Part shown: positions 9,526 to 57,032 of the stretch, piece after piece
Layout of the letters: each line of letters begins with the position of its first letter
How positions within the stretch are numbered: the stretch's first letter is position 1
Assembly (NCBI GenBank): GCA_051294375.1
Contig: CM119263.1
Span: 9,912,432-9,976,431, forward strand
Length of the DNA: 64,000 nucleotides
DNA from: Paraspadella gotoi
Lineage: Eukaryota > Animalia > Chaetognatha
Reading direction: 5' to 3'
Notes under the pieces: generated by a model
Seen by the model: the letters and a program-made list of their open reading frames with translations, nothing else
What the model was told of the DNA's origin: nothing
Database searches by the model: none
Made by a program: the position numbers and the translations under genes

Positions 9526-9692
9526 GTCATTCGCCTCTCAACCCAAAGGTCCAGGGTTCTAGCGCGGTGGTCGCCTAGCAGTTAAGAGGGACGGGGCGCT
9601 TAACCCGCCTGTAACACGGTGTTACAGCCTGATCCAAAGCTGCTTATATTAAACGGTTCTGTCACTAACTCAACAATTATAACTATCTCGTC
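9526..9692 (+). mobile_element. TRIM family A LTR fragment
   Basis: Near-identical to the 3' two-thirds of the family A LTR, with a deletion in the ribozyme P4/P5 region. Confidence 0.8.
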
Positions 9693-9847
9693 ACGTGGAA
9701 CAAAACGGTATAAATTAAAGATTAGAAATGTTTATCAAACAATTCATTAAAATTTAAATGACTGACATTTTTGGTGTCATAATAAAATAACCCCGGGCTA
9801 TAAACGTTTGTAATTCATGTAAAAAAAGCTGTAAACTCATTGAATAC

Positions 9848-10100: not shown

Positions 10101-10386
10101 CTGTAGGCATTTATAAGATGAAATGAAATTAAAAAGCTTAGGCATTTCCTACAATAATATTCCCAGTGTTATGTTACTAATAAGTTTAAAGTTTATTTAG
10201 TATTAATTTAACATTGTAAATTTTTATAGTTTTCCTTCTTCCATCCATACATCTACCCTTGGTTCCTTGCTTATTGTCTACTTACAATGAATATTTGTAT
10301 CTGAGATTGGAAATTGTGTTCTCAAAATGTGGTTACTGTTTCTGCTTTATTACATGGTTCTAAGAATACAACGTTATAGTTAAGGT

Positions 10387-11111
10387 AGGAGTCTACGTCG
10401 TTCTTAAAAATCGAGAAAGACTTTTTTTTCAATGGCGATTTTCGTTAAAATCTGACTACCAAATAATGTCAACGCCCCTGGGAAAAATTCAGGTAAAAAA
10501 TAGATTTAAAAACACTCGATTCCGATCCTGTTACATCTGAAGGGCTCACATTTTTTTTCTCTTGACAAATAACCATCATTTTGACATCAAACCATCAGAT
10601 TCAAATGGACTGATCCGCTCGGGAAAATATTTTTGAGGCGATTTTTCTAAATAAAATAAAGGGATTTCTCAACTTCAATACAATGTCAATGCATTTAACA
10701 TATGTTGTGATTTTACAATACACTTCGAATTCAGGAATCCGATAGCCATATTTCTGAAGGGCTCTCAAAATTTTTTTTTACATTTTATTTGGTGATTTTG
10801 ATATGATACGATCATGGGAAATTGAATTAGTCCATTTTGGTGAAATTTTTATTAAAAGTAAAAGTAAAAAAGGAGCTAACGATCGGAATTCTAAGAGTTT
10901 TCAACCGGGAGTCAGATTCGGGAAAAATCTTCTAAGGCGAAAATCTTCCAAAGAAGGGGTAAATTTTCCGAAGATTTTGGTTAATATTTTCTATATTTAT
11001 GGTAGGATTTTTTTGAAACTTAATATTAACAATATTGCCATAATTCTACCTTGGCCGGTATAAGAATATATTAAAAAAACCTCTGGCTTTGTTTGTCAGA
11101 GCTTAGTCCTA
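10387..11111. repeat. ~720-bp interspersed repeat, second copy at ~25385-26104
   Basis: Two highly similar colinear copies (gagtctacgtcgttct ... cagagcttagtccta); class not determined. Confidence 0.8.
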
Positions 11112-13883
11112 AATAATTTCCATCTCTTTTGATCTCAGTGATTAGTATGAAGTTTTTGTTATTTAAAAAAATGGTTTGCTATGGTTATCTCATTCTTATT
11201 ATTATCTAGTTCAGTTAAATTTCAACAAGTTAAAAATATGGTAAGACATGATTACCTCGGAGATTATCAATCTAATCAAACTACCTAATTTGAGATGTAA
11301 GTATGAATGAATTTTTATGGTACCAACAACTTTTAAAGATCAAATTCCTCCTTTTAATTTTTGTGACTTTTATTTACACAAAGCTTTTCAGGCAAGACGC
11401 CACATTATCTGATACAATTTTTAGTCTAAAAATATCCGATAATTTACTTTGTCGGTCCGCCCCCTAAATCTTGTCGGGCATTCACTTATATCATGTCAGA
11501 ACATTGAATTATGATAAATTATGCAAAAAAAACCAAAAAAAAAAAAACGATGTCCTCCGTCCGTCTGTCCCACCTTAGCAAAAAATAATTACTCGTGATT
11601 GGATGGATGGATTGGAATGAAATTTTGTATGTGGGTAGGGAAGTGTGTGATTGAGCTGGATATGAAGTTTCGATGGAATCGTCCGAGTGGAAATGAGTTT
11701 AAATGGAAAAAAAATATATATTTGACTATTTGAACACCAATGGGATGGGGGATGGGGCGATTTTGTATTTGGGTAGAAACGTGTGTGATTAAACTGGAAA
11801 TCAAGTTTTGATGGAATCGTTTGAGTGAAAATGAGTTTAAATTGAAAAAACAAAGAACCTGTTTAACTAATTGATTATGTTTCTTTTTTTAAATTTTAAA
11901 TGTAAATGCAAGATGTATTAAATAATCAAATAATGAATCAGTTAATTAATCTATTAGTGAATTAATTAATCAATAATTAATTAATCAGTCAATTAATCAA
12001 TCAAACCAAACATTTCGGATCAAATTAATTAATTGCCTAATTAAATAATTAACTGAAATAAATAATTATTAATTAATTAATAATTAATTAGCTTGAATTA
12101 ATTATTAATTAATTAATTAATTACCGATAATGATCGTGGGCAGATCCGACATTGTTTGCTCAAACTTGTTTCCTTTCATACCGTTTCCCTGATTCTTTTT
12201 CCTCATCTCTTTTCTTCTCTGTGTTTCTATTTTTATCTTCCTCTTTCCTCCCCTACTTTTCATGTCATAACTTACCTTTTCTACGACCCTACCTTTCTCT
12301 ACCACTATTTGACCTTCCTTATTCTTATCTCTCGCCTTCTTTCCTTCTCTTTCTTTCCCCCTTTTTTTCTCATCTCTTTTTCTTTCCATTTTCCCTTCTT
12401 TTTCCGCCTTTCCTTTATCTCCCTATTTTTTTCCTTTGCCTCCTCCCTTCTTCTTTTCTTGTTCTCCTTTTTCTGTTCCCTCCCACTACTTTTCTGCATT
12501 TACATTGAGCCAAATCAAAGAAATTCCTTAATATTCATTATAAGAAAACAAATTTACGGTATCTCATGATTTTATTTCAATTTTGGTTGCCAAGCAGATT
12601 TAGTAAATCGACAGATTTTACGGAAAATTGGTTTAAAAGGATGCGGTTTTTTTTTTTATTAACGTCAGTAAGTTCCTTAACTGTTAAAACTATAAAATAA
12701 ATTTAAAATCTTATCTTTATTAAAAATAAATGCAAGTCACAAAAAGTCACAAATTAATTGTCGTCTTTAAAAATTATTTATGGCTAAACAAGAGTTTTTT
12801 TTTGATAATTTTGTAGGTGTTAAAAGCTTATTCTGTGGGCTATATTTTCTGTTAGAGCTAATTTAAACTATTTTTGTTTAATAAATTATAATAAAAACTA
12901 AAACAGACTTTTTGACTTGTCAACTTTAAAATTAATTCTTAAGTGAACTATGAATGATATAAGGAAAATATTTTACTCAAGGGTGAAGAAGATAAGGAAG
13001 AAAGGAATTCTAAAATAAAAAAATTTTTCTCAACTTTCCTTGGCATTCAAATTTGAAGACGAAAGTGAAAATGGACAAAAATGGACATGATCTTTTTTCC
13101 TAAAAGTGGCGAAAATGTTACTCTTATATGATTAGAAATAGCTGGAGATGGTTTTAACCAATCCGTATTTTGGCCTAATTTATATTATAGTGCAAATTAA
13201 ATTAATTTTGTTAATAAGTAACTCAACAATACTGGAAAAAGTAGTTTTTTTTCTGAATGCGAGGATTGTAAGCAGAGGCCCAGGTACTCTGGGAATGAAT
13301 AAAAGAGACTGTGAAAGAGTCTTGAAAGCTTGGAGGGACCTGCTATGTCATTATCTTGTAAGAGTGATGGAGGCCTTAAACCACCAAAGTCAGTCCAAAG
13401 TCAAGGGCAAGATAGCTTATTTATTTAATGAATGGATAATTTTTATATTGGTTGTACCAATTTCAAATAAAATAAAATATATAAAAAACAATTAGTGAAT
13501 CAGGTTTTTTCCATTTGAACTCATTTCCACTCATACGATTCCAATCCATACAACCAATCACGAGTAATTGGAGTTTTTGCTAAAGGAGGGACGGACAGAC
13601 TGTTGGACGGACGGACTTTAATTGCATAATTTATCATAATTTGATGTTCTAACTTCATTTAAATGATTTACCGACAAGGTTGAGGGGGTGGACCGACGGA
13701 CCGACAAAGTGAATTATAGAGCCGGAATCTGCTGTAAACAAATCTGGCTAAAAATAAATAGCTAAAAAGCAAATTTATGCTTATTATTAAATTGTGATTT
13801 ACTATTTTAAATCATTTTTTCTTGGGCTTTTTCATAATACCCAAATAAATAAAATGAAAAAATGAATGTCCGATAATACAAAC

Positions 13884-15015: not shown

Positions 15016-15252
15016 TGTGGAAGACGATGCCGCGAGCAGTTTAGCGTCCGTTGCACACAAGGTCCCGAACTTCGGATCGGGCTGTAGTCCGACACTACAG
15101 GTGGGTTAGACGCCCCGTCCCGCTTTTACTTGTGTGAATCAGCAGGGCGCGAACCCGAGTCCTTTGGGTTGGGAGGACATCGTGCTACCTCCGGCGCCAT
15201 AGGTGCTGCTGATTCTCGGACGAGTAGCAGGGTATGAAATACTACCGCTACA
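15016..15252 (-). mobile_element. Solo LTR, family D (diverged relative of family A)
   Basis: TG...CA termini, CAAC TSD, tRNA-like A/B boxes (TGGCGCCGGAGG, GGTTCGCGCCC), twister-like fold at 15054-15136. Confidence 0.85.
15054..15136 (-). ncRNA. Twister-like ribozyme in family D solo LTR
   Basis: Same layout as family A with compensatory changes in P3, P4, P5 and T2 (AC:GT); predicted cleavage 15108/15107. Confidence 0.75.
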
Positions 15253-16405
15253 CAACACTTTAAAATAAAAGTTTTGTAATGAAAATTTAAATCGTTTTAT
15301 TAAAATAATAATTATAATAATAAGAATTTAAGAGAACGCAAAAATTGACCAAGCAAAATACATTTTTTTACTTTTAAAAGAATTTTTAAAATTTTTAAAA
15401 AAATATTTTGGGTTATTTTACCGACCGGGGTTAGGGAGGGGTGAGGGTTAAGGGTGGTTTCAGGTTAGGGGTAGTTAGGGTGAAGAGGGTTTAGGTTTAG
15501 GGTAATTCGGTAATATTTTTTTTTAAATGTTTTTTTTTTAAAAATAAGTATTTTTAAGTAGTTTTTCAAAAGCCGCCAAAACCGCGGTCGGCGAAAGTAA
15601 AATTTAGGCGCTCTACATTCTCCAGCATGCTTTGGAGGCTGTTGTAATGGTTGTGTAATGTGTATGTAGCAAGCCTTGGAAATTGATGTGACATACTTTA
15701 ACTAATAAATCTGAGTGGACGGTAAAACCATTTATACTTTTGAGGAAATCAATGATCTCGTCAAAGCTATGTCAGAAATCATTCAAGCGAGGGTAGCGCA
15801 AAGGGTGTTGGAACTATTTTGTTGGAATTGCGGCAAACATCTTTTTTTTAGGCCCACCCATATTATGCCAGATATAAATTAAGCTACGATGATTTTGAAA
15901 ATCTTTTGGCACAGGATAGGGAAGGGTGTGGTTAGTAGAGCGTAGTGAAAGTTACGTACGGAAATTCTAAGTCAATTTGAACAACATACCATCAGTGAAC
16001 ATTAATTTGTAAAAAAAATTAATTTTAAGTTTTTTAATTTTCGCAGTAGGCTATATTTATATATAGTACTATCCTTATAAAATCGAAAAATTTCAAAATA
16101 GGCTTTTCTTAATTTTAATTGCAGATTTGAATTCCTCATCAAAAGTTGATAAAAGAAAATATAAATCATTTTTAAAAATTCTTTCATTAAGTGGGTTAAA
16201 AATTAAAAAAACTATATTAAATATATAAAAAATTAATTTTCAGTTTAAAATATAGCTTTTTTTAAATTTTGACCCACTTAATGAAGGAATTTTTCAAAAA
16301 GAGTTATATTTTTTTTCATCAACTTTTTATGACGAATCCAAATCTGAAAAAAAATCTTAGAAAAAACTGTTTTGAAATTTTAACATTTATTGGATTAGTA
16401 CTAGT

Positions 16406-18907: not shown

Positions 18908-21239
18908 GATAAATTATGCAAAAAAAATTATATCCGTCCATCCGTTCGTCCCCCCTTAGAAAAAAACTCCAATTACTCGTGATTGGGTGGTTGGATTGGA
19001 ATGAAATTTTGTGTGTAGGAAAGTGTGTGATGAATGTGCATACAAAGTTTCGATGGAATCGTTTGAGCGGAAATGAGTTTAAATGGAAAAAACATAAGTC
19101 GCATTTACTAAAATGTTTTTACTTATTTTAACCCATAATTACTCGAATTAATCATAATTGAATTAATAGATAGAGATGAAATTTTGTTTGCGGGTAGGAA
19201 AGTGTGTGAAGAATCTGGAAATAAGTTTAAATGGAAAAAACATAAATCACATTTACCTGAATCTTTATTATTTATGATTACTTATAAATGTTTTAATTAA
19301 TTAATTAATTATCGTAGGCAGATCCGACATCGTTTGCTCAAACTTTTTTTCCAATAATTTTCGAGGTTCTGAGAAGATACAAGATTTTGGGGTGTAACCG
19401 ACGGACCAATAAACTGACTTCAAGTAGGGGTAGCCCCACTCAATGAGGTGAGACAAAAATTTAGAATGATGACATGCTCAAACGAAAATTTATATATTTT
19501 CAAGTATACTTTCAATGGACAAAACATTTCTTATATGGCTCGAAACCCAAATAATTATTTTTTTAATATTTATTAAGATAGGAAAGCCAAAAATTTTTTT
19601 GGATAATTTTTTAAATTTTAAGACCAGATTCAGATAGCTCATAAAAAGTGGTCTACACAGTAGAGATCCTGATTATTATTATTATTAAGAAAGAAAAGAA
19701 AATCGCCGGTCGAATTATTGAAAAACCAATGCCCGCTAAGAAATTGTTTTGCTCCCTCTGTTCAAACGCCGGTCGCAAAACGTTACCTTATTTTTTTTTA
19801 ACCGTATTTACTTTACAAATGTAAACCAAATGAATTCCACTTTGTACAATTAGCCAATTCGATTTCATACGCTTTTCTGATTTCAATAATTTCAATAATT
19901 CAACCATTTTTATCTCGACCACCTCCACTACACAAAGTATAATTCTTTTTTAAATATTTTCATGGTGAGTCAAAAATAAGAACAAGTTTGAGCAAACAAT
20001 GTCGATCTGCCTACGATAATTAATAATTAATCGATTAATTAATTAATAAATTTATAATATGTAATATTAATTTTAAATTTATATTCAACTTATCATCATC
20101 ATGATGTCCTAAAATTGGTTAGGACAGTTATTAAATATGTTTTGTTTACATTTTATCAAAACAAACAAATATCCCTATTTTATTATGTCTCCTTCTCTCT
20201 CTCTCTCACTCACTCTCTCTCTCTCTCTCTTTTTATGCAATTGCGACGATCTTTATGCTTTTAAGAATTTTTAACTTGCATCATTTTTTCACATTAATTA
20301 ATTAATTAATAAAACATTTATTAGTAAATCATTAATATTAAAGATTCAAGTAAATGTGACTTATGTTTTTTCCATCTAAACTCATTTCCACTGGCACAAT
20401 TCCGTCAAAACTTTATATAATTATTATATATTAATAAATATTTAAAAGCTTCAGTGCAACAATCCAATGAACTAATTCAAAGATTACATTGAAAATCGAT
20501 TTAGTAGTAAAAGGAAAAAAAAAAATTTAAAGAGAACTAGAAGTTATAAAAATGTTCAATTTTGGCCCGCCTTACTAGATATTAGCCGGAACAGGTTGAA
20601 AACTAGAAGTTCTCTCAAATAAATAATGGTTAAGCGACTATAAATTATATGAAAATGAAATAATTTTAAAATTTTGCTTATCAATTTTTTTTATAGATTC
20701 TGATAGAGCTTTAAAAGTTAGATAAAGGTTATTAATACAACTTTTAAAATTTGTTGTTTTATTAATGAAAAATTTAAAAAAAAATAAAATTCAGCCAATA
20801 ATGATGATGATGATGATTTTTTAAGGTTTTTTATTTTAACCAATTTATTGTCAAAATTTGAAAAAAAATTATAAAATTTAACTTTTTAAGCTCTACAAGA
20901 ACCCGTTCTTAAAAAAATCAAATTTAAAAAAAAAAATTTTGTCATTTATTATATATTAATAAATATTTAAAAGCTTCAGTGCAACAACCCAATGAACAAT
21001 TCAAAAAGTTACATTGAAAACGATTAGAGTAGTAGAAGGAAAAAAGAAATTTTTTTGGGAGAACTAGAAGTTATAAAAGTGTTCAATTTGCCCCGCCTTA
21101 CTAGATATATTGCATGTGATTAAGCAATGTTATCGAATAATAATTTTACCAATTTTATGTATTTTGTAAGTATTTTAAGTATTTTTATTAAGTGAGTAAA
21201 TTAACAACTTTTATTCGCTAATTTTATCTCGGACTCTCT

Positions 21240-21760
21240 TCTCTCTGCAATTGCAACGATCATTATGCTCATTTTTCTGCTCTCTCTCTCTCTTCTTTCT
21301 TTGCAATTGCGATCATCCTTATGCTCATTTTTCTGCTCTCTTTCTCCTCTCTCTTTTCTCTCTCTCTCTTTGCAATTGCGACGATCTTATGCTCATTTTT
21401 CTGCTCTCTCTCTCTTTTGCAATGCAACGATCATTATGCTCATTTTTCTGTCTCTCTCTCTCTCTCTTTCTTCTTTGCAATTGCGATCATCCTTATGCTC
21501 ATTTTTCTGCTCTATCTCTTCTCTCTCTTCTCTCTTCCAATTGCGACGATCTTATGCTCATTTCTGCTTCTCTCTTTGCAATTGCAACGATCATTATGCT
21601 CATTTTTCTGCTCTCATCTCTCTCTCTCTTCTTCTGCAATTGCGATCATAACTTATGCTCATTTTTCTGCTCTCTTCTCTCTCTCTTGCAATTGCGACGA
21701 TCCTTATGCTCATTTTTCTGCTCTTCTCTCGTCCTCTCTCTCTCTTTGCAATTGCGAATC
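21240..21760. repeat. ~45-bp minisatellite (ctctttgcaattgcgacgatccttatgctcatttttctg plus variable CT run)
   Basis: About a dozen tandem units inside the DINE-like element. Confidence 0.9.
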
Positions 21761-24149: not shown

Positions 24150-24516
24150 CTATTTCAATGGTTTCGTTAATAATACAGTCCTGTGCAAAATAAAGAGGAC
24201 ACCCAAAAACATAAAAATAAATCCAGTTAGATTCTGATAAAATGAAAGATATTATATGTGAATAATATTTATTGAAAAAGGAACTATTGGTATAAATTTG
24301 GTTAATCCTGACTATCCGTTACGAAGCACTGATTTTTTTTTAAAAAGTAATTACTTAGTTACAACTACTAAGTACTCAAACAGAATGTTTGATAAAAAAA
24401 TTTAAGTATTTTTAACCTCTTGTGTTTAAAGTGCTGTAGCTCTGGAATGACAGGACCGATTTTTTTTTAAAGTTGAGTTTTTAAGATTTCCTCTTTCAAA
24501 AGTCCTTATTTCCCAT

Positions 24517-25172
24517 TGAAGAGACAGTAATTATTGTTATGTGTTAATGACAGAACCGTTCAATATAAGCAGTCCCTGAGCTTTGGATCAGGTTGTAACA
24601 CCGTGTTACAGGCGGGTTAAGCGCCCCGTCCCTCTTAACTGCTAGGCGGCCACCGGGCTAGAACCCCGGACCTTTGGGTTAGGAGGCGATTGACTTGCCT
24701 CTGGCACCAATGGCTGCTGATGAACGGTTGGTGGATTTTAGTCCACCATACATCCTCCCCTCCCGTAGGGAGAAGTCTGTTGCGTCTCTTCAGTGTATTG
24801 TTGTTGTTGGTGGAATGTTCGTCACCAAGTTGAGGCATGTTGCCTGATGTGTTGTTGTCGGAAAGTGCATCGCCAGGTTGAGGGATGTCGCCTGAAAGTG
24901 TTGTTGCTGCTGTTGTGTTTGGAAGTCAGGCTCACCAATGAAGAGACAGTAATTATTGTTATGTGTTAATGACAGAACCGTTCAATATAAGCAGTCACTG
25001 AGCTTCGGATCAGGCTGTAACACCGTGTTACAGGCGGGTTAAGCGCCCCGTCCCTCTTAATTGCTAGGTGACCACCGGGCTAGAACCCCGGACCTTTGGG
25101 TTGGGAGGCGATTGACTTGCCTCCGGCACCAATGGCTGCTAATGAACGGTTGGTGGATTTTAGTCCACCATA
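24517..25172 (-). mobile_element. Complete TRIM, family A (LTR contains tRNA-like head plus twister-like ribozyme)
   Basis: Two 234-bp direct repeats (24517-24750, 24939-25172), 188-bp internal part, PBS TGGTGAGCCTGAC, PPT GGGAGGGGAGGA, CCAT TSD on both sides. Confidence 0.92.
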
Positions 25173-26461
25173 CCATTCAGAATTTAAAAAAAAAATTAAA
25201 AGACAATGCCCATAAATTAAGGCTAAAAAGTATCTTCGGTTTTTGGCAGATCTTCAAAAATGTTTTTTTGAAGCAAATCAAATGACAAATTTTTTGGAAA
25301 ATTTGTCTTTTAGGAGCGATAGCTCTTGAATGCTTGGACCGATTTTCGTTTAATTTATACATAAATTTTCCATTTAAAAATTAAGAGTCTACGTCGTTCT
25401 TAGAAATCGAGGAAGACTTTTTCAATGGAGATTTTCGTTAAAATCTGACTACCAAATAATGTCAACGCCCCTGGGAAAAATTCAGGTAAAAAATAGATGT
25501 AAAAACACTCGATTCCGATCCTGTTGCATCTGAAGGGCTCGCATTTTTTTTCTCTCGACAAATAACCATCATTTTGACATCAAACCATCAGATTCAAATG
25601 GACTGGTCCGCTCGGGAAAATATTTTCAATGCAATTTTTATATATAAAATAAAGGGATTTCTCAACTTCAATACAATGTCAACGCATTTAACATATGTTG
25701 TGATTTTACAATAAACTTCAAATTCAGGAATCCAATAGCCATATGTCTGAAGGGCTCTCAAAATTTTTCTTTACATTTTATTTGGTTATTTTGATATGAT
25801 ACGATCATGGAAAAGTGCATTAGTCCATTTTGGTGAAATTTTTATTTAAAGTAAAAGTAAAAGAGCAGCTAACGATCGGAATTCTAAGAGTTTTCAACCG
25901 GGAGTCAGATTCAGTAAAAATCTTCTATGGCGAAAATCTTCCAAAGAAGGGGTGGATTTTCCGAAGATTTTGGTTGATATTTTCTATATTTATGGTAGGA
26001 TTTTTTTGAAACTTAATATTAACAATATTGCCATCATTCTACCTTGGCCGGTATAAGAATATATTAAAAAAACCTCTGGCTTTGTTCGTCAGAGCTTAGT
26101 CCTATAAAAATCTACATTTATCATTCATTTTTTTTCATAATATGTGCTTAAAACGAGCGCTACTAAATGTTTGAAGAGTCCTTTTTTTTTTGCGCAGGAC
26201 TAACTTAGTAGGAACGAAATTTGAAAATATTAAAGATTGATTAATTGATTGAAGATTAATCGTCGAAAGGAGATAACACCACTCTGATACACGAACAAGA
26301 ACCGGCAACTTCATGGTGTTACCTCGGAGTGACTTTCTTGAAAGGATGCATTTCCCACATACGCATACTCAAGTATGAAATACATACTGATGAAGACTCA
26401 AAAAACTAGAGTCAAAACTTGAACGTTTTTTGAAATAGAAAAAAGTTTTTTGTAAACAAAT

Positions 26462-26827
26462 TGAAGAGACAGCAATTATTGTGTTAGTGGCAGAACCGTT
26501 CAATATAAGCTCTCCCTGAGCTTCGGATCAGGCTGTAAAACCGTGTTACAGGCGGGTTAAGCGCCCCGTCCCTCTTAACTGCGAGGCGACCACCGGGCTA
26601 GCACCCCGGACCTTTGGGTTGGGAGGCGAATGACTTGCCTCTGGCACCTATGGCCGCTGATGAACGGTTGGTGGATTTTAGTCCACCCTACATCCCCCCC
26701 CTCCCGTAGTCTGTTGCGTCTCTTCAGTTAATTGTTGTTGTTGGTGGAAAGTTCGTCACAAAGTTGAGTCATGTCGCCTAATGTGTTGTTGGCAGTAAGT
26801 GCTGTAGGTGGATTTTAGTCCACCATA
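26462..26827 (-). mobile_element. TRIM family A copy, 5' LTR mostly deleted
   Basis: Intact 3' LTR, PPT and part of the internal region; both outer termini kept; AAAT TSD. Confidence 0.85.
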
Positions 26828-27125
26828 AAATAAACTTTGTTTAGTCTCGAAATATATACTTAAAATCAGCATCTGATAAGTATTAACTGAAATAATTAAA
26901 ACAAAAAATTAGCCACAGTCTTTCTGATCACGACGATTCAAGTGACTGCCTTTATACGAGATCAGATGACTGTACCCAAGTTTGAAATATGTACATAACA
27001 ATCGTTTAATGATCCCTAACCTATAAATATAAAACAATTTATAACCATAGCGAATAACTAGTTTTAGAGTTATGGTGAATCAACTTCTTGCGACGTTTCT
27101 GAATAAAAATGAAGCAGTGGCAAAC

Positions 27126-33178: not shown

Positions 33179-34842
33179 TAATTAAAAGAGAAAGAAAATA
33201 AAATTTATTTTTAAATTATTTGTTTTCTGAAAAGTTAGTTAACTATATTTATTAATAATTATGAGTAAAAATTAGGTTAAAGTTAAAAATAATAATTTTA
33301 AAATTTTGATCCCGGATTCGCATTTCTTTCAAAATTTAGAAAAACTAAAAACAAAAATTATTGTTTTTAACTATCTTAATAAAAGAATTTGTTAAAATAG
33401 ATTTTACTTTCTATGTTAACTTTTTGCATGAAATTCAAATCCGTTTTAAACTTTAAAATTTTTATTTTTTTACTTGAACCTATTTTTTACTACTAATAAT
33501 TAATAAAAATAACTAGCTGTTAATAAAATATAAAATTTTTAAATAAACTTACCAAATATATATATATATATTATATATATATTATATAAGCTAAATATGA
33601 CTTTTTTAAATACAAGAGTTTTATGCAAAAGAAAATGAGTTGTCTAAAAAAAGTTTCCTTCTTTTTTATCTTTTTTATATCTACACTTTTTATTTACAAT
33701 AATTTCCGGTTCTTATTTATTACTTTTTGTGTTAAACCATTACTATTAAAAATCTTTGCCTTTTCTCAGACTCATGTCAAATGGTTATTACATCATCTCC
33801 ATTAAGATAGATTCAAGGATGAATCTTAATTCATATGTCAAAAAAAGAGCGGTATTAAAAATATATTGATGCTGTAAATGCTCCAGAATATTCTTTTTAT
33901 ATTGTAAAGTATCAATAAAAGTTATAAAGCTCCAGGTAAGCTTTCTGTTAGCAAAGTTAACATTTTTTACTGCTTGCCAAGGAACATTCTTTGCCCTAAA
34001 TCTGATAAAAAATATTTCAGAGATATAATATTAACAATAATGTAAGTTGTCTTCTTGATTAAAAAGAGGTGAAAACAGTAGGAAACAACCTCTTTTGGAA
34101 GTAATTGTATGTATTAAATAATTTTATGCTGTTGAGAAAATTTTTTTATTAAGTCCTAGGGAAGTGATATTACATATTAAAACCTATTTACCGGCCAAAA
34201 AATATATTTGACAATAAAATTAACTGACCTTTCCAAACTGGTATTACTCTGACACCTAATTTCAGGAAAAATTTTTTGCAAAAATCTGTCGACTTTACTA
34301 ACTCTGCTAAGCAACAAAAATATAAAAAAAATGGCGAGTTTCCGAATTATTAGGAGCATAAACTAAAGAATAAACAATACAGAAAAAAATAAAAAATAAA
34401 AGTTGATTTTGGAATTTTGGGGAGGAGAGGGAGAGAGGGGGAAAAAGGATTGAGGGAAAGAAAGACAGAGAAAAAAAGATGAGAATAAGGAATAAAGATA
34501 AAAACAAAGGGAGAAAGAAAGAAAGGGATAAAGAAAAACAAAGTGAGAAAAAAAGGAGAAAGAAAGAAAGGAAAAAGGGAAGAAAGAGAGAGTAAGAAGA
34601 GAAATTATAAATCAGAACCAAAAAGAGAAGATAATGCTTAGATTTAAATAAAAAAAATCTTAAAAGCATAAGGATCGTCGCAATCGCATAAGAAAAATCT
34701 GGATTGACAACAAATTTTGAAAAATTAAATTTGAGAAAAGAAAATTAATTTATAAACAGAAAGAAAAATTCTATTTTGCGATTGTCAATTAAAAAAAATA
34801 ATAAAGTAGCAAGAAAAATTAAAGTTACAGTTACTGAAAAAA

Positions 34843-37615
34843 AACAAGTTTGAGCAAACAATATCGGATCTGCCTACGATAATTAATTAATTAATCGATT
34901 AATTAATTAATTTTAATATGTAATAATTAATTTTAAATTTATATTCAACTTATGATCATCGATGTCCTTAGGACAGTTATTAAATATGTTTTGTTTACAT
35001 TTCATCAAACAAACAAATATCCTATATTTTATTTTATGTCTCCTTCTCTCTCTCTCTCTCTCTCTCTTTTTATGCAATTGCGACGATCTTTATGCTTTTA
35101 AGATTTTTTTAACTTGCATCATTTTTTACATTAATTAATTAATTAATTAAAACATTTATTAGTAATCATTAATATTAAATATTCAAGTAAATGTGACTTA
35201 TGAAATTGGTACAACCAATATAAAAATTATCCATTCATTTAATAAATAAGCTATCTTGCCCTATGTTTTTTCCATCTAAACTCATTTCCACTGGCACAAT
35301 TCTATCAAAACTTTATATAATTATTATATATTAATAAATATTTAAAAGCTTCAGTGCAACAACCCAATGAACTAATTCAAAAAGTTACTTAATAAATCAT
35401 TAGTAGTAAAAGGGAAAAAAAATTTTTAAAAGAACTAGAAGTTATAAAAAGTGTTCAATTTTGGCCCGCCTTACAAGATATTAGGCCGGAACAGGTTGAA
35501 AACTATGAAGTTCTCTCAATAAATAATGGTTAAGCGACTATTAAATAATATGAAAATGAAATAATTTTAAAACTTTTTTATAGATTCTGATAGAGCTTTA
35601 AAAGTTAGATAAAGGTATTAATACAACTTTTTAATTTTTTTTGTTTTATTAATTAAAAATTAAAAAAAAAATAAATTCAGCCAATAATTATAATGATGAT
35701 GATTTTTTAAGGTTTTTTCTATTTTTAACCAATTTATTGTCAAAATTTGAAAAAATTATAATACTAACTTTCATTTAACTTTTTAAGCTCTACAAGAACC
35801 CGTTCTTAAAAAAATAACAATTTTAAAATTTTTTTTTGTCATTTGTTATATATTAATAAATATTTAAAAGCTTCAGTGCAACAACCCAATGAACTAATTC
35901 AAAAGTTACATTGAAAATCGATTTAGTAGTAGAAGGAAAAAAAAAATTTTTTTGAGAGAACTAGAAGTTATAAAAAGTGTTCAATTTTGGCCCGCGTTAC
36001 TAGATATATTGCATGTGATTAAACAATGTTATCGGAATAATAATTTTATAATTTTATGTATTTTGTAAGTATTTTAAGTATTTTTATTCAGTGAGTAAAA
36101 TAATTTTTTATTCGCTAATTTTTATCTCGGACTCTCTCTCTTTCTCACTCTCTCTCTCTCTCTCTTTGCAATTGCAACGATCCTTATGCTCATTTTTCTG
36201 CTTCTTTTCTCTCTCTCTCTCTCTTTGCAATTTCGACGATCCTTATGCTCATTTTTCTGCTCTCTCTTGCATAATTTTTGAAACATTTATTAGTAATCAT
36301 AAATAATAAAGATTCAAGTAAATGTGACTAATGTTTTTTCCATTTAAACTCATTTCCACTGGCACAATTCCATCCAAACTTTATATCTAGCTTCTTTAAA
36401 CACTTTCCTACCCGCTCACAAAATTTCATCTCAATCTATTAAGGGTTAAAATAAGTAGAAAGATTCAAGTAAATGTGACTCATATTTTTTTCATTTAAAC
36501 TCATTTCCACTCGTACGTTTCCACCGAAACTTATATCAAGCATCGTTACACATTTTTCTACCCACACAAAAAATTTTAACTAAATCTATCCATCCAATTA
36601 GATTAATTAGAGTACTTATGGGTTAAAATAAAAAATATTTTAGTAAATGCGACTTATGTTTTTTTCCATTTAAAATCATTTCCACTCATACGATTCCGTC
36701 GAAACTTTATATCCAGCTTTATCACACACTTTCCTATCCACACACAAAATTTCATTCCAATCCAACCAGCCAAACACGAGTTATTTGAGCTTTTTGCTAA
36801 GGTGGACGGATGGACGGATTGATTGACTGATTAATTAATTATTGATTAATTAATTAACTAATTGATTAATTAACTGATTAATTATTTGATTTATTAATAC
36901 ATCCTGCATATACATTTAATATAAAAGGAAAAAGAATCATAATCAATTAGTGAAACCGGTTTTTTGTTTTTTTCCATTTAAACTCATTTCCTCTCAAAAG
37001 ATTCCATCGAAACTTGGTTTCCTGTTCAATCACACACTTTTCTACTCACACACAAAATTCAATTTCGATTTATCTATCAAATTTTAATAAACATAATAAT
37101 TATGAGTAAATTTAAGTAAAAATACTTCAAGTAAATATGACTTTTGTTTTTTCCATTTTAACTCATTTCCACTCGCACGATTCCATCGAAACTTTATATC
37201 CAGCTCAATCACACACTTTCCTACCATCATACAAAATTTCAAGTCAATTGCCCTATCCACTCATGAGCAATAGGCGTTCAAAAAGTGAAATATATTTTTG
37301 TTTTTTCCATTTAAACCAATTTCCACCTCGCACCGATTCCCTCAAAACTTCATATCCATCTCAATCACAGTTTCCTACCAATACACAAAATTTCATACCA
37401 ATCCATCCATCCAATCACGAGTAATTGGAGTTTTTTGCTAAGGTGGGACGGACGGACAGACAGACAGACAGACGGACATCGTTTTTTTTTTGCATAATTA
37501 ATCATAATTCGATATTCTGACATGATATAAGTGTGTGCCCGACAATATTGAGGGGGCGGACCGACAAAGTGAGTTATAGAGTCGGGATCTGCTGATAAGC
37601 AGATCCGACTAAAAA
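34843..37615 (+). mobile_element. Second long copy of the DINE/Helentron-like element
   Basis: Same termini and internal order as 19981-23564, with fewer satellite units. Confidence 0.75.
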
Positions 37616-38689: not shown

Positions 38690-40120
38690 TCAATATTTTA
38701 ATACTTCAGAATCGAAATATTTATGAGGCTCTGCAACGGAGTTTTGATCCGGTTTTTCTGCCAATATTCCTTCAAGTAAAGGATCTGCATTCGATTCAGG
38801 CCCTCCTTCAAGTGGAGAATCTAGTTTTGAAGTTTTTGCTTCGCATGAGAAAAAACCAACATCACTGATGTCATTAGGCTGAGGAATCAAGCCTGTTTTT
38901 GTTTTTTTTCCACTTAAAGATTCCGTCGAAGGTGCCGAGTCGTCTAAAGGAGAACAATTCGCGAAATACGGCTCTACGTTGGGTCCAGAATCCAATGTAG
39001 GAACAGGAGCACCTTCAAGTGAAGTCTTTCTTTCAATTTGACAATTTCGATTGGTTTCTTCTAAATCGATTGAATGGTCTTTTATCGTTGTTGGCTTCGC
39101 ATCAATTTTTAATTCAAGCTCTTTGTCCAGTAATAATAAACTGGATTTTGAAACGAGCTCGGTTTCTTTCTTGAGAGGAGAATTTTTATTAACCTCCGAA
39201 ATTTCCTCGTATTGAGAATCCAGTTTGGATTCCGTACTGACATATGCAGCATTCATTGTAGTTACCATAATTGATTTGTTTTCGGAATCCATAAAAAAAT
39301 TTTCCTTCATATTAAAAACTTCTGGGACTTCAAAGTTTTGTAATTCAAATTTAGTTTTTACTTCTTTAAAAGAATCATCAGTTCCAGGACAATTTAAAAT
39401 GTCGTTTAAATTAGTTGGAGATGACATCGCAAGTGACTGAGCGTTCACCTTAGATTCTGTTACTTCTAATAAAATATCTAATGCAGGGGTTAGCACAAAA
39501 TCTGATGCAATATCTTTCTTGGATTCTTCGTCACAAAAAAAATTTAAATGGGAGTCTGAGGAATCCATGCTTTTCGATTTGGGATTCTGAAAAACTTCAG
39601 ATTGATTAGTAGCTTCAGAAGCCAACTCTGCAGCTTCTTTGAAGCTTCGGTCCCGCCTGAGAGAAGAATCATTCTTACAATCTAGTTTACTAATTATATT
39701 GCTTTCTGTTTCATACACCAAATTAACTCCCAGTAAGTGATCAGCCCCCCCAGATTGAGATTGTATGTTGCCTGGAGCTCGCTTATGCAAGTCATTTAAT
39801 ACCAACTCTGGTTTCTCTATAATTTTTACCATTGCCTCATCAGAAATAACCGCGCAGTGGGAAATGTGCTTAGGTTCTTCAGTCAAATTCAAATTTTCTT
39901 CCTTTAAACACGATTGTATTGTATCTTCTGAAAGCGGGACGTCCTCGAAGTCTACAGGGACTGCTGCCAAAATAGTTTCTTCTGAAATTTGAGAATCGGA
40001 CATCTCGATTTTCATTGAATCCACGCTCGCGTCGCCCGATATTTGCTGAGGGCAGCTTTCTTCAACGAAAGTTGGAGGTGAAGTTTCCTTCATCATATCT
40101 TCAGTTTCATTTTTAGCCAC
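38690..40120 (-). CDS. DPY30-domain (DYDC1/2-like) protein, exon 2: long acidic low-complexity tail
   Basis: 476-codon open frame starting directly after tttttAG (40121-40122), in phase with exon 1; E/S/D/K-rich; TGA at 38690-38692. A donor just before the stop cannot be excluded. Confidence 0.8.
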   Translation of the reverse strand: MAKNETEDMMKETSPPTFVEESCPQQISGDASVDSMKIEMSDSQISEETILAAVPVDFEDVPLSEDTIQSCLKEENLNLTEEPKHISHCAVISDEAMVKIIEKPELVLNDLHKRAPGNIQSQSGGADHLLGVNLVYETESNIISKLDCKNDSSLRRDRSFKEAAELASEATNQSEVFQNPKSKSMDSSDSHLNFFCDEESKKDIASDFVLTPALDILLEVTESKVNAQSLAMSSPTNLNDILNCPGTDDSFKEVKTKFELQNFEVPEVFNMKENFFMDSENKSIMVTTMNAAYVSTESKLDSQYEEISEVNKNSPLKKETELVSKSSLLLLDKELELKIDAKPTTIKDHSIDLEETNRNCQIERKTSLEGAPVPTLDSGPNVEPYFANCSPLDDSAPSTESLSGKKTKTGLIPQPNDISDVGFFSCEAKTSKLDSPLEGGPESNADPLLEGILAEKPDQNSVAEPHKYFDSEVLKY

Positions 40121-40267: not shown

Positions 40268-40431
40268 CTTTCAGATCGGGCTGTAACACCATGTTCTTGG
40301 CGGTTTAAGCACCCCATCCTTCTTAACTGCTAGGCAGCCACCGGACAAGAAGACCGGACCTGTGGGTTTGCGAAGCGAATGACTTGCCCCCTGTATCAAT
40401 AGACGCTGGTTGGTGATTTTAGTTCACCATA
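40268..40431 (-). mobile_element. Degenerate TRIM family A LTR fragment in the DYDC-like intron
   Basis: Colinear with the family A LTR (ctgtaacacc...tcttaactgctagg...gaatgacttgcc...caccata) with many substitutions. Confidence 0.7.
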
Positions 40432-45524: not shown

Positions 45525-46210
45525 TGTGGATAAGGCGCTAAGTGGGCTGAAGAAGACTATCCATAACTTCTATAACCCCCTCTAGCAGACATGGAAGGGT
45601 CCAGGGCTTGGAACCAGGCTTGAGGGTTTGCCACGCCCCCAAGGCGGCTTAGGGACATCCTCAAACTTCCCGCAGGGTAGGTACCGGGTTGGGATTGAAC
45701 CGGGACCTAGTGGTCATGAGCTGATGGCTTTACTCAATGAGCCACCGGGTCACAACTGAAAGAGTCATGCTTATAGGCGGGTGAACCTAGGAAATGCCGA
45801 CTACATGCCCCCCCAGATTGTAACCCACCCTGCACTGCTTCCAGTGGAGGGAGGGGAGCAATCTTCAGCACGTCCATGGGCCTGGAATCAGAAGGTTGGA
45901 ATACGCTCGACAGGATGGGCTCACCAGTGTGGATAAGGCGCTAAGTGGGCTGAAGATGACTATCCATAACTTCTATAACCCCCTTTAGTAGCCATGGAAC
46001 GGGTCCTGGGCTTGGAACCAGGCTTGAGGGTTTGCCACGCCCCAAGGCGGCTTACGGCCGTCCTCACTCTTCCCGCACGGTAGGTACGCGGTTGGGATTG
46101 AACCCGGTACCTTGTGGTCATGAGCTGATGGCTTTACTCAATGAGCCACCGGGTCACAACTGAAAGAGTCATGCTTATAGGGGTGTGAACCTAGGCAATG
46201 CCCGACTACA
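45525..46210 (-). mobile_element. Complete TRIM, family B
   Basis: LTRs 45525-45805 and 45928-46210 (TG...CA), 122-bp internal part, PBS TGGTGAGCCCATC, G-run PPT, TTTA TSD; tRNA-like head (TGGCTCATTGAG ... GGTTCAATCCC). Confidence 0.92.
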
Positions 46211-49368: not shown

Positions 49369-49604
49369 TGTGGAGGTATATTCACACCGCCTCACATCCA
49401 CCATCGTTAAGCCAATCCCATTGGCTCAGAGGGGGAACACACCATCCCAAGCGTTGTGTTCCATCCACAGTCCTAACGTCTTCCCTGTGTTGGCAAAGCG
49501 AGACCGTCCTCGGGTAACCGCGCCAGGGGTGCCACTGAGGGTCGGAAGCCCCTAAAACCAACAGTGAGATGCCCCATCCCAATGGGCAGCCCGGCTGTGC
49601 CAAA
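49369..49604 (+). mobile_element. Solo LTR, TRIM family C
   Basis: Colinear with 56777-57032; imperfect TSD ATAC/GTAC. Confidence 0.85.
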
Positions 49605-50803
49605 GTACCCAATAAATTGTACAATTTTTTTCAGGTATTCCCAAAATTTATCTTGGCTAAATTTTACTTTCGCCGACCGCGGTTATGGCAGTTTTTGAAA
49701 AACCATTTAAAAATACTTATTTAAAAAAAAATTTAAAAAAATATTACCAAATTACCCTAAACTCTTTTAACCCTAACCACTAAGGCGTAGTGAAAGTTAC
49801 ATACGAAAATTCTAAAAGTCAATTATGAACAACATACTATCAGTGAACATTAATTTGTAAAAAAGATTAATTTTATGCTTTTTAATTTTCGCAGTAGGCT
49901 ATATTTATATATAGTACTATCCTTATAAAATCGAAAAATTTCAAAATAAGCTCATCTTAATTTTGATTGCAGATTTGAATTCCTCGTCAAAAGTTGATAA
50001 AAGAAAATATAAATCATTTTTAAAAATTCTTTCATTAAGTGGGTTAAAAATTAAAAAAACTATATTTAATATATAAAAAGTTAATTTTCAGCTTAAAATA
50101 TAGCTTTTTCTAATTTTTGACCCACTTAATGAAGGAATTTTTCAAAAAGAGTTATATTTCTTTTTATCAACTTTTTATGACGAATCCAAATCTGCAAAAA
50201 AATCTTAGAAAAAAACTGTTTTGAAATTTTAACATTTATTGATTTAGTACTAGTATAAATATGGCCTACTGTGTAAATTGTAAAATTTATTATAAATTTT
50301 TTTATTACATAAATGTTTATTAATATAATGTTGTTTGTTCCTCACTTTTAGAATTTTAATTAAAGTTAAATTTAGAAATTTTACTACGCCTTACTAACCA
50401 CCCCATAATCACTCCTAACCCTAACCCCTCCCTAACCCCGGTCGGCGAAAGTAGATTTAACCCATTATCTACTGTTAGTATTTTTCATTTGCTCTTTTGT
50501 ATGCACCTCACGGTTCCTTTTTACATCGATTTAATCGGCATGGAGTGCACAAGAATGAGATGTACCTACTATATCTTTTCACTTGCATTTCTTTACACAA
50601 AATTTTTTTCATTTTTCAAGCCTAATTTCCCAGAATTCGAAAACAAAATAGCACTTCTGATTTATTTTAAATGATCAAGTGATTAATTATAAATTATAAT
50701 TTATATAATATTATTTAACCGCAATAACAGTTGAGGTCAATCCCATACATACGCCTGCATTGGTTACTACGTACATGACTATTCTCTCTAATTTTAAACC
50801 AAC

Positions 50804-51450
50804 CTGATGTCTCCGTTGTCGTCTTTAGGGGCCGATCGTGGGAGTAGCTTTAACTTGGGTCTGGCCGCGGCCTCTTCCGCCGTAGGTTCTCGTAAATCGT
50901 CGAAGTTTGCTCCCCTGCCGCTCTCCCTTCTCGGTCTACCCCCAGATCCCCGACTGAAACCCCCACCACTTCCTCCGGATTCCCTCCTAGCTCGGTTTTC
51001 CCCCGTAGGCCCGCGTCCGCCAAAATTTCCCCGAGTTCCGCCCCCACGATAGTTTTCCCTGCTTCCGTAGCCGCCTCCTCCGAAACCTCTGCTACCGCCG
51101 AAATCGTCTCTGATCGATGGCATGTCTCTCCCCTGCGAGCCACCACGATCTTCGAATCCCACAGGGGGGCCGCCAGGCGGAGATCGGTAGTCTCTGTCGC
51201 CAACCATAGGGGGACCACCAACGGCACCGCGTCCGCCGCCTATACCACGGCTACCGCCGCGGCCGGCCACCCCGGGACCTCGCTGATCCTTACGTCCTTC
51301 GGCAACGTCGACGCGGATGTTCTTGTCTTCGAAGAGTGCGCCGTCGAAAGAGAGGGCATCTTTCAAAGATTCTCGAGTATCGAACTCCACGTAACAAAAT
51401 CCCTTGAACTTGTCCGTATCACGATCTCGCACCAGCCGGACGTTTTTAAC
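50804..51450 (-). CDS. EIF4H: eIF4H exon 5: RRM second half, RGG-rich region, [10 protein letters not shown] motif
   Basis: [23 protein letters not shown] (RNP1) ... [10 protein letters not shown] ... [12 protein letters not shown]; ctgcAG acceptor, GTtggt donor. Confidence 0.95.
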
Positions 51451-52004
51451 CTGCAGAAAAACATTCGGATTTAACTTCCTTGAGGGGTATTGAAGACGTG
51501 AAGAAATAGAGGGAAAATAATGGTATATTTCGCGAAGAGTAGAAACGAGAGAATGTATCGCAAGACAAAATATACTGACGGGCGGGAGGAGGAGGAAAGA
51601 AGAGGAAGAGGAGAATTGGACGGCAGGCTAAATCCTCCTCTGACTTCAAATTTTAATTAAAATTGAATGAGAACAAGTTTGAGCAAACAATGCCTCATCT
51701 GTTCACGATAATTTAGCGGTAAATAGCTAATCAGATAATGAACTAATTATTCAAATAATTATTTAATAATTAATAACTATTATAATTTCTAATATTTAAT
51801 GAGTTAAGCATCAGCAGAAGATTAATTAATTAATCATCCGATCGATTACATTATTCAATTACAGTAATTAAGGGTTACCTTTACTTTCACCGACCGGGGT
51901 GAGGGAGGGGTGAGGGAGGGATTAGGGTGAAGAGTGGTTTAAGTGTAGTTTAGGGTTAGGGGTAGTTAAGGGTGGTTAAGGGTTATATCTTTTAAAATTT
52001 TTTG

Positions 52005-52181
52005 CTACGCCCCCAAGGCGGCTTAGGGACATCCTCAAACTTCCCGCAGGGTAGGTACCGGGTTGGGATTGAACCCGGTACCTAGTGGTCATGAGCTGAT
52101 GGCTTTACTCAATGAGCCACCGGGTCACGACTGAAGGTGTCATGCTTAGAGGCGGGGTGAACTTTGCTATGCCCGACTACC
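52005..52181 (-). mobile_element. TRIM family B LTR fragment
   Basis: Near-identical to 45630-45805; truncated inside ribozyme P3. Confidence 0.8.
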
Positions 52182-53510: not shown

Positions 53511-54116
53511 GGCGTAATAAAATTTCTAAATTTTACTTTAATTAAAATTCTAAAAGTGAGGAACGAACAACATTATATTAATGAACATTTATGTAATAAA
53601 AAAATTCATAATAAATTTTACAATTTACGCAGTAGGCCATATTTATACTAGTACTAAACCAATAAATGTTAAAATTTCAAAACAGTTTTTTCTAAGATTT
53701 TTTTGCAGATTTGGATTCGTCATAAAAAGTTGATAAAAAGAAATATAACTCTTTTTGAAAAATTCCTTCATTAAGTGGGTCAAAAATTAGAAAAAGCTAT
53801 ATTTTAAGCTGAAAATTAATTTTTTATATATTAAATATAGTTTTTTCAATTTTTAACCCACTTAATGAAAGAATTTTTAAAAATGATTTATATTTTCTTT
53901 TATCAACTTTTGACGAGGAATTCAAATCTGCAATCAAAATTAAGAAAAGCTCATTTTGAAATTTTTTGATTTTATAAGGATAGTACTATATATAAATATA
54001 CCCTACTGCGAAAATTAAAAAACATAAAATTAATTTTTTTTATAAATTAATGTTCACTGATGGTATGTTGTTCATAATTGACTTTTAGAATTTTCGTATG
54101 TAACTTTCACTACGCC
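53511..54116. mobile_element. TTAA-flanked GG...CC MITE (Kolobok-like termini); other copies at 49784-50390 and ~15939-18077
   Basis: ttaa|ggcgtaataaaattt ... aactttcactacgcc|ttaa; three ~600-bp colinear copies, one interrupted. Confidence 0.75.
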
Positions 54117-55828: not shown

Positions 55829-56287
55829 TATGGTGGACCAAAATCCACCAACGTTCATCAGCGGCCATTGGTGCCGGAGGCAAGTCATTCGCCTCCCAAC
55901 CCAAAGGTCCGGGGTTCTAGCCCGGTGGTCGCCTAGCAATTAAGAGGGACGGGGCGCTTAACCCGCCTGTAACGCGGTGTTACAGCCTGATCCGAAGCTC
56001 AGGGACTGCTTATATTGAACGGTTCTGTCACTAACACAACAATAATTACTGTCTCTTTATTGGTGAGCCCGACTTCCGAACACAACAGCAACAACAACAC
56101 TTTCAGGCGACATGCCTCAACCTGGCGATGCACTTTCCTTCAACAATACATCAGGCGACATGCCTCAACTTGGTGACGAACTTTCCACCAACAACAAGAA
56201 TTCACTGAAGAGACGCAACAGATATCTCCTTATCTGCTTATATTGAACGGTTCTGTCACTAACACAACAATAATTACTGTCTCTTCA
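55829..56287 (+). mobile_element. TRIM family A copy, 3' LTR mostly deleted
   Basis: Full 5' LTR 55829-56059, PBS TGGTGAGCCCGAC at 56061, internal region, last ~55 bp of 3' LTR; ATAG TSD. Confidence 0.88.
55935..56010 (+). ncRNA. Twister-like ribozyme (P5 permutation) in family A LTR
   Basis: AGCAATT-AA-GAGG-GA-CGGG-GCGCT-TAA-CCC-GC-CTGTAAC/GTTACAG-CCTGA-TCCG-AAGC-TCAGG-GACTGCT; pseudoknots T1 TCCG:CGGG and T2 GC:GC; predicted cleavage 55959/55960. Confidence 0.75.
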
Positions 56288-56326: not shown

Positions 56327-57032
56327 TGTGGCGGTATATTCACACCGCCTCACGTCCACTCATGCCTTCAGCCAAATCCATTGGCTCAGAGGGGAACACA
56401 CCATCCCAGGCGTAGTGTTCCATCCACAGTCCTAACGACTTCCTCTGCATTGGCAAAGCGAGACCGTCCTAGGGTAACCGCGCAGTGACTGAAGCCGTCA
56501 CTGAGGGTCGGAAGCCCCCAAAGCCAACAGTGAGATGCCCCATCCCAATGGGCATCACAGGCAACCCGGCTGTTGCCATAAGTGGTGAGCCCTACTATCG
56601 AACACGCAACCTTCTCAGGGTACGCTATGACAAACGCCTATGCCCCTGGGGTACGCTACGACAAACGCCTATGCCCCCACAACTCGCGCTCTCTCTCTCT
56701 CTCCCACTATGGTAACAGTCTTGTCAGACACCTCTCAGGCTTGAGGAACCTGAGTGATGTCTTGACCCGGGGATCCTGTGGCGGTATATTCACACCGCCT
56801 CACGTCCACCATCCTTCAGCCAAATCCATTGGCTCAGAGGGGGAACACACCATCCCAGGCGTAGTGTTCCATCCACAGTCCTAACGACTTCCCTCTGCGT
56901 TGGCAAAGCGAGACCGTCCTAGGGTAACCGCGCCAGTGACTGGAGCCGTCACTGAGGGTCGGAAGCCCCCAAAGCCAACAGTGAGATGCCCCATCCCAAT
57001 GGGCATCACAGGCAACTCCGGCTGTTGCCATA
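56327..57032 (+). mobile_element. Complete TRIM, family C
   Basis: LTRs 56327-56580 and 56777-57032, 196-bp internal part, PBS TGGTGAGCCCTAC at 56583, GTAG TSD. Confidence 0.92.
56899..56979 (+). ncRNA. Twister-like ribozyme in family C LTR (other copies at ~56449-56528 and ~49489-49562)
   Basis: GTTGGC-AAA-GCGA-GA-CCGT-CCTAGGG-TAA-CCGC-GC-CAGTGAC/GTCACTG-AGGG-TCGG-AAGC-CCCC-AAA-GCCAAC; predicted cleavage 56925/56926. Confidence 0.7.

Follow-up and report, generated by a model that had tools for sequence, protein, structure and literature searches.

Short non-coding LTR elements of a chaetognath with predicted twister ribozymes behind a tRNA-derived head

The window analysed here (the whole 64-kb stretch of Paraspadella gotoi DNA) contains four families of LTR element, designated A, F, G and H, whose LTRs hold a motif resembling the type-P5 twister ribozyme. 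From comparison of the families, this motif is very probably a twister fold kept under selection, and self-cleavage by some of the copies is likely. The elements themselves are, on balance, probably non-coding animal LTR retrozymes with an RNA polymerase III head that would release monomers of 403-450 nt. As twister-bearing LTR elements of an animal, they would appear to be of the LTR retrozyme and Helenus kinds with a different ribozyme, a combination of which no description was found in the literature that could be searched.

Element anatomy and abundance

An earlier reading made from the DNA letters alone (below, the sequence-only reading) had described a non-coding 656-bp element with two 234-bp LTRs, a primer-binding site (PBS), a polypurine tract (PPT) and a 4-bp TSD, and all of these parts were found (family A; Table 1). 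The two LTRs are identical at 225 of 234 positions; of the nine differences, one affects pseudoknot T1 and another the base of P3. The internal region is 188 nt long, with the TGG PBS at its start and the PPT at its end, and the element termini are TA...CA rather than TG...CA. Four more family A copies or fragments (B, C, D and E) lie in the window. The full elements of families A, G and H (656, 706 and 686 bp, respectively) share the features of a TRIM: two LTRs, a length below 1 kb, no coding capacity, a PBS and PPT, and a short TSD. Six exact 4-bp TSDs were found over the four families, and one further family G copy has a TSD with a 1-nt mismatch. LTR identity between families is 46-65% in pairwise comparison. 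A hairpin at the 5' end of the LTR is predicted by folding in families F and G as well as in A.

All three family A TSDs begin with AT (25173-25176, 55825-55828 and 26828-26831), and TG precedes the terminal TA only at the PPT junction. The AT start and the TA...CA ends may point to preferred target sites or to an atypical processing of the ends.

The PBS of copy B matches a tRNA-Trp PBS (PMC10886601 Fig. S2) at 12 of 13 nt and that of the 656-bp copy matches it at 11 of 13. The first 10 nt are common to copy B and families G and H, and the 656-bp copy shares the first nine. Because of the match in copy B, tRNA-Trp is the inferred primer of these elements.

Repeat abundance was assessed by aligning contigs from four of the nine listed runs to the family A element. 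The element is covered two to three orders of magnitude more deeply than its flanks, a ratio that is not a copy number. Loose contig ends stack at 24515-17, 24750, 24939 and 25172, and the flanks beyond them are heterogeneous and AT-rich, which indicates that the element boundaries are real. The element is thus highly repeated, and its LTR, PBS, PPT and TSD anatomy supports the classification as a TRIM that the sequence-only reading had made. Family F is also highly repeated in contigs from four runs. Among the matches listed for family A and F contigs, loose ends do not pile up at the predicted U^A cleavage sites.

The window contains other dispersed repeat families (10386-11123 and 25382-26117; 49781-50393, 53508-54119 and 15929-16405; 19975-21411 and 34837-36267). 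Some of the other dispersed repeats have inverted-repeat self-matches (MITE-like), and AT-rich short repeats are numerous. Visual inspection of five other GC-rich islands of the window revealed no additional obvious element. An eIF4H-like RRM reading frame lies at 50797-51627 (minus strand; best relatives 61%), with named matches spread over many animal phyla, which marks the host as an animal that lacks a close annotated relative. A 476-aa acidic open frame at 38693-40120 (minus strand) has no Pfam match and probably represents a large host-gene exon.

Table 1. Positions of the elements and of their predicted parts in the window
Feature	Position	Strand	Remarks
Family A TRIM, full element	24517..25172	-	656 bp; termini TA...CA
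Left TSD	25173..25176	-	ATGG
Right TSD	24513..24516	-	ATGG
5' LTR	24939..25172	-	234 nt
3' LTR	24517..24750	-	234 nt; 9 differences from 5' LTR
Hairpin at LTR 5' end	25151..25170	-	7 bp; predicted fold
tRNA-derived head, 5' LTR	25068..25139	-	72 nt
A-box-like sequence	25131-25120	-	44 nt from B box
B-box-like sequence	25087-25077	-	
Primer-binding site	24925..24937	-	
Polypurine tract	24751..24764	-	
Predicted type-P5 twister, 5' LTR	24990..25066	-	U^AA at 25041/25040
P2'	25056-53	-	5' LTR twister
GA	25052-51	-	5' LTR twister
Palindromic linker	25047-42	-	5' LTR twister
L4	25009-02	-	5' LTR twister
Predicted twister, 3' LTR	24568..24644	-	U^A 24619/24618; one T1 mismatch
Predicted monomer	24619..25040	-	422 nt between the two U^A sites; inferred product
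Family A copy B	55829..56287	+	5' LTR intact, 3' LTR mostly deleted; TSD ATAG
Family A copy C	26462..26827	-	5' LTR mostly deleted; TSD ATTT
Family A LTR fragment D	9526..9693	+	P4 3' strand deleted
Family A LTR fragment E	40270..40431	-	decayed
Family F solo LTR	15016..15252	-	237 nt; TG...CA; TSD GTTG; twister U^A 15108/15107
Family G full TRIM	56327..57032	+	LTRs ~254 nt; TSD GTAG; same PBS as A
Family G twisters, both LTRs	U^A 56475/56476 and 56925/56926	+	450-nt spacing
Family G solo-LTR-like copy	49369..49600	+	twister U^A 49515/49516
Family H full TRIM	45525..46210	-	LTRs ~283 nt; TG...CA; TSD TAAA; same PBS as A
Family H LTR fragment	52001..52180	-	truncated before P4

Predicted twister ribozymes

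Type-P5 twister ribozymes reportedly go back to the work of Roth et al. in 2014. The predicted twister of family A reads P5a, P2', GA, T1', linker, U^AA, P2, T2, P3, P4, L4, P4' and P5b, which is the order that the sequence-only reading had set out, with the same two U^A sites 422 nt apart. This order corresponds, after circular permutation, to the table of Schistosoma mansoni twister elements in PMC8501958. P2 is paired as proposed, although it consists of 3 bp plus a bulge and the original description is corrected to that extent: its 5' strand has 3 nt in family A, leaving the bulge, and 4 nt in the seven S. mansoni twisters tabulated in PMC8501958. The loop TCCA that had been noticed in the 3' LTR of the 656-bp element, a T1 mismatch, was confirmed. 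It is not private to this LTR, as it also occurs in copy D and is common in the reads (contigs, among the 40 of 163 variant rows listed).

Rfam cmsearch, proposed with the sequence-only reading as a check, went against it in family A, which gave no match to the twister models at E<=10. At this threshold neither a twister nor a tRNA match was obtained for family A, family F or copy B, and at the gathering threshold the whole 64-kb window gave no match to any Rfam family. Pseudoknot-free folding of the family A ribozyme region is not better than that of shuffled sequences (z -0.04 and 0.28), and the MFE fold differs from the twister fold. Considered alone, the family A twister is only suggestive. 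Folding of the circular monomers is not uniformly unusual either (z -2.5, -3.8 and -0.9).

Families G and H come closer to the models. The top Rfam match of family H is Twister-P5, aligned over model positions 1-58 of 58 (16.6 bits, E-value: 0.82, cutoff 37.6), and both G LTRs have partial matches to the twister-P1 model (about 15 bits, E-values: 4.1 and 7.1). All of these scores are far under the cutoffs (16.6 versus 37.6; 15.3 versus 67.2; none for A and F), and the gathering threshold for the type-P5 twister is reached by none of the families.

Family G was spotted by eye; its P2 strand has 4 nt and its T1 is inverted. Family H was found blind by the second of the two descriptors described below. 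In its full element the twister is intact in the 5' LTR (U^A 46054/46053) and weakened in the 3' LTR, with a spacing of 403 nt. The weakened variant, which has a mismatched P2 and a non-palindromic linker, is present in two of the three H copies, and so a ribozyme that is apparently weakened has still been copied. The differences between the 5' and 3' LTRs of family H are clustered at and near the ribozyme, where the 3' LTR agrees with the fragment at 52180-52001 (minus strand). The element at 46210-45525 is possibly a recombinant of two subfamilies, one of them with a weakened ribozyme.

Covariation and statistical support

The argument for a twister comes from comparison between families. 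Cross-family pairs were tabulated by coordinates because MAFFT misaligned family G. All 11 tabulated copies retain GA, UAA and the loop AA. T1 occurs as CCG:CGG (A and F), CGG:CCG (G) and UCC:GGA (H), all complementary, and T2 occurs in two complementary versions across the 11 copies. P3, P4 and P5 vary in sequence among the families yet still pair. Compared with A, F differs at both positions of four of the 20 named pairs (in T2, where G-C is replaced by A-U, twice in P3 and once in P4) and breaks none, and the P5 of F keeps its pairing with another sequence; all four double changes stem from this single comparison. At neither of the T2 positions does F have a variant row at a 3% threshold in four runs, so its letters there are family traits.

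The two pseudoknots drawn to the P4 loop in the sequence-only reading are in this way conserved across four LTR families, with covariation in both. Its assignment to the P5 type is supported by this covariation, by the recurrence in four families and by the full-length, sub-threshold Twister-P5 alignment of family H. T1, T2, P2 and P4 are present with covariation, as in type-P5 twisters; P2 is shortened or mismatched, and T1 is mismatched in the family A 3' LTR (A3) and in copy D. Among some 2600 natural twisters tested, imperfections of P1 and P2, including deletions and bulges, were tolerated, whereas the pseudoknots and catalytic bases were sensitive (PMC11662667). The same pattern of loose and strict parts is kept here, which supports the twister reading.

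Two descriptors were run against the window and against shuffled sequence. The first has six matches, two of which are AT-rich chance matches outside the LTRs, and is passed by five of 20000 shuffled LTRs. The second, composed after families A, F and G had been seen, has eight matches in 64 kb, all inside these LTRs, against a mean of 0.02 over 100 shuffled windows and 0 of 20000 shuffled LTRs. It misses five of the 13 LTR-derived copies: A3 and D (T1 mismatch), E (decayed), the H 3' LTR (H3; poor P2) and the truncated 52-kb fragment.

In viral contigs, two twister-element patterns gave no match. In metagenome contigs 39 loci were obtained, of which 38 failed the pairing filter. The single locus with P4, T1 and T2 all paired (L029:61-105, minus strand; 3-nt P2 strand) was dropped because it has no LTR or P3 context and because, on a rough estimate, about one such match is expected in ten scans.

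The P1 linker

The place of the P1 helix, between T1' and U-1, is taken by a linker that is a 6-8-nt palindrome. The sequence-only reading had named a 'mini-P1' here; the sequence is present, as a palindrome that forms no stable hairpin alone rather than as a hairpin stem. The linker is self-complementary in eight of 11 copies, comprising those of A and F, both LTRs of the full G element and the H 5' LTR; the exceptions are H3, the matching 52-kb fragment and the G solo copy. Self-duplex energies of -6 to -11 kcal/mol were obtained for 10 of the 11 linkers, and none forms a stable hairpin by itself. The chance estimate for a palindromic linker in three independent families is about 0.002. Homodimer cofolding gave a swapped P1/P5 arrangement for F only (one of four), and because cofolding favours dimers for any hairpin, this result carries little weight.

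The tRNA-derived head

Upstream of the ribozyme, the LTR contains a tRNA-derived head. The sequence-only reading had described it as a tRNA-like cloverleaf with A and B boxes. The boxes and two of the stems, an acceptor-like stem and a T-arm-like hairpin, are retained in family A; the cloverleaf was overstated, as the D and anticodon arms are degenerate by sequence and neither ARAGORN at default settings (0 genes) nor Rfam recognises a tRNA. A relaxed ARAGORN threshold gave 292 calls, all of them noise, which were set aside. Rather than a cloverleaf, the head is the degenerate remnant of a promoter like that of Helenus.

Measured against the A- and B-box consensus, families A, F and H show 0-1 mismatch in the B box and 1-2 in the A box, and the distance between the boxes is exactly 44 nt, the usual A-to-B spacing of tRNA. 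Between 53 and 89 of 3000 shuffles pass the same test. The B box of family H is canonical; family G has a perfect A box and no good B box, and so does not pass. The heads of A, F and H align almost without gaps. No T4 run occurs on the sense strand of A, F, G or H, which fits RNA polymerase III read-through, an absence that is not significant (3274 of 10000 shuffles likewise have none).

The MFE fold of the family A head is a three-way junction. This alternative to the cloverleaf is shared by the heads of A and F (55861-55933, plus strand, and 15207-15140, minus strand), and from these models a role in packaging or stability is possible.

Comparison with known elements

Plant LTR retrozymes are also non-coding, with a ribozyme in each of two LTRs, a PBS, a PPT, 4-bp TSDs, solo LTRs and a predicted monomer that spans the interval between the two cleavage sites (PMC4918200). 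Families A, G and H likewise combine a ribozyme motif in both LTRs with a PBS, a PPT and a 4-bp TSD. The plant elements carry a type III hammerhead and a tRNA-Met PBS, and their monomers of 600-1000 nt form circles (PMC4918200). The elements described here differ from them in the animal host, the twister-like motif in place of a hammerhead, the tRNA-derived head with A and B boxes, the Trp-like PBS and the predicted monomer of 403-450 nt.

The second relative is Helenus/TRIMp3 (Kojima 2024, PMC10886601), whose tRNA-derived LTR sequence with A and B boxes is matched by A, F and H, but not by G with its poor B box, and whose animal-type 4-bp TSD is also found here. Transcription of Helenus by RNA polymerase III is unvalidated in PMC10886601 itself. 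In the supplement as consulted, most animal Helenus LTRs have the tRNA-like part near the LTR 3' end and no twister that could be seen by eye, and six family A and F motifs searched there did not reveal these families; the word 'twister' does not occur in the accessible text of the paper. By eye, the LTRs of Helenus-2_SyJa and Helenus-2_SyUm from the gall wasp Synergus (PMC10886601 DataS1) contain a complete type III hammerhead core that follows the B box, together with a tRNA-Trp PBS. These two families have the same layout as the present elements with another ribozyme, a point unremarked in the available part of PMC10886601.

With type-P5 twisters (Rfam RF02684) and the T-variants of RTE elements (PMC8501958), the predicted ribozymes share UAA, GA, T1 and T2 to an 8-nt L4, P2, P3 and P4, and families A and F have the P3 base sequence of the S. 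mansoni twisters. They differ from both in their location in LTRs, the 3-nt P2 5' strand with a 3' bulge (A, F and H), the 6-8-nt palindrome for P1, the presence of both P3 and P5, and scores under the Rfam cutoffs. Schistosoma Sm-alpha SINE-like elements and animal non-LTR retrozymes also join an RNA polymerase III/tRNA head to a self-cleaving ribozyme, with palindromic-stem dimeric cleavage in some hammerheads and RtcB-type circularisation (PMC6765202, PMC7229834). Unlike the present elements, they are tandemly arranged non-LTR repeats that lack a PBS and PPT and carry hammerheads of type I.

A 2026 preprint recognises two types of retrozyme, LTR in plants and non-LTR in animals, and, in the part available, does not use the word 'twister' (bioRxiv 10.64898/2026.07.22.740005). 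RTE twisters and insect type III hammerheads are mentioned as unpublished work in PMC7761336. The accessible portions of PMC12859917 and PMC10085705 contain nothing on a twister and LTR combination. The sequence-only reading knew of no description combining such elements with twisters, and a literature search likewise found no description of twisters in LTRs, with most subscription journals, Repbase and Dfam outside its reach.

Proposed cycle and alternatives

The cycle envisaged for these elements takes cleavage, the 422-nt RNA of family A, circularisation and reverse transcription from plant LTR retrozymes by analogy, and would run as follows. RNA polymerase III would start at the head of the 5' LTR and read through. 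The two predicted ribozymes, one in each LTR, would cut out the monomer of 403-450 nt. Its 2',3'-cyclic phosphate and 5'-OH ends would be joined by a host ligase, by analogy with RtcB, which circularises animal retrozyme monomers in vitro (PMC7229834). A tRNA would prime at the PBS, and copying would proceed round the circle. A Gypsy-type partner would carry out reverse transcription and integrate the product with a 4-bp TSD. The PBS is presumably linked to the CsRn1 clade of Gypsy. No autonomous partner was found in the window, with no reverse transcriptase or integrase among the 22 of 32 ORFs scanned. A circular template is proposed because double cleavage leaves no R repeat, an argument made in PMC4918200.

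It is unlikely that the twisters are active but only trim linear RNA, so that the 5' LTR would be partly cleaved and an uncut 3' LTR would provide an R of about 100 nt for the usual strand transfer, with no circle. Twisters at RTE 5' ends do process linear retrotransposon RNA (PMC8501958), and the weakened 3' LTR ribozymes of the 656-bp A copy and of H would suit such a course. Both LTRs are, however, copied from one template, which would make their ribozymes equal at the outset, and joint cleavage of the two sites would be promoted by the palindromic P1. The loss of R by double cleavage, on which the case for plant retrozyme circles was built (PMC4918200), also argues for the circle.

That the twister is a passenger or structural relic from a captured SINE, RTE or Penelope fragment, serving in packaging or dimerisation or present by mere descent, with no cleavage, appears quite improbable. 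Capture is made plausible by the P3 base and by the linker preceding P2', which are similar to those of S. mansoni RTE twisters (PMC8501958); the sub-threshold Rfam scores, the shortened P2 of A, F and H and the weakened variant in two H copies also speak for this alternative. The catalytic G, UAA and loop AA are nevertheless invariant over families only 46-65% identical, and both pseudoknots change compensatorily, a combination difficult to account for unless the catalytic fold is under selection. Although described animal retrozymes are tied to Penelope-like elements (bioRxiv 10.64898/2026.07.22.740005), it is very improbable that these are non-LTR retrozymes or pseudo-LTR derivatives moved by such elements with an incidental LTR look, as the LTR anatomy (PBS, PPT, six exact 4-bp TSDs in four families, TG...CA in F and H, and solo LTRs) largely excludes this and non-LTR retrozymes have no LTR, PBS or PPT and longer TSDs (PMC7229834).

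Within the LTR retrozyme reading, the palindromic P1 linker may, tentatively, allow the two LTR ribozymes to fold as a domain-swapped dimer. P1 is reported to be dispensable in natural twisters (PMC11662667), and some hammerheads cleave as dimers via short palindromic stems (PMC6765202; PMC7229834). In the dimer both LTRs would contribute one half to each site, and the monomer ends would be left held by P5, P2 and T1. The circle, with only one linker and one ribozyme, would resist recutting. A broader proposal, that the elements belong to an unrecognised class of animal LTR retrozymes driven by RNA polymerase III, with a Trp-type PBS, an interchangeable ribozyme and twisters that cleave only as a domain-swapped dimer, is doubtful as a whole. 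The interchange would be between the twisters here and the type III hammerhead of the published gall-wasp Helenus families. If true, the LTR twister pair would be the first natural dimeric twister, and the dimer would act as a built-in switch by which the two-LTR transcript is cut and the circle is spared.

Implications

LTR retrozymes have been described chiefly from plants, with type III hammerheads, and the retrozymes of animals as non-LTR repeats (bioRxiv 10.64898/2026.07.22.740005; PMC7229834). Eukaryotic twisters have a single assigned role, the 5' processing of RTE elements (PMC8501958). If the motifs described here cleave, twisters would gain a second role and LTR retrozymes would extend to animals, and the model of circle-templated reverse transcription would become testable with another ribozyme class. 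The arrangement would also suggest how a TRIM driven by RNA polymerase III obtains defined RNA ends without an R repeat. Because the motifs score under the Rfam cutoffs, repeat libraries may contain many such elements that have escaped notice, a possibility to which the Synergus hammerheads also point.
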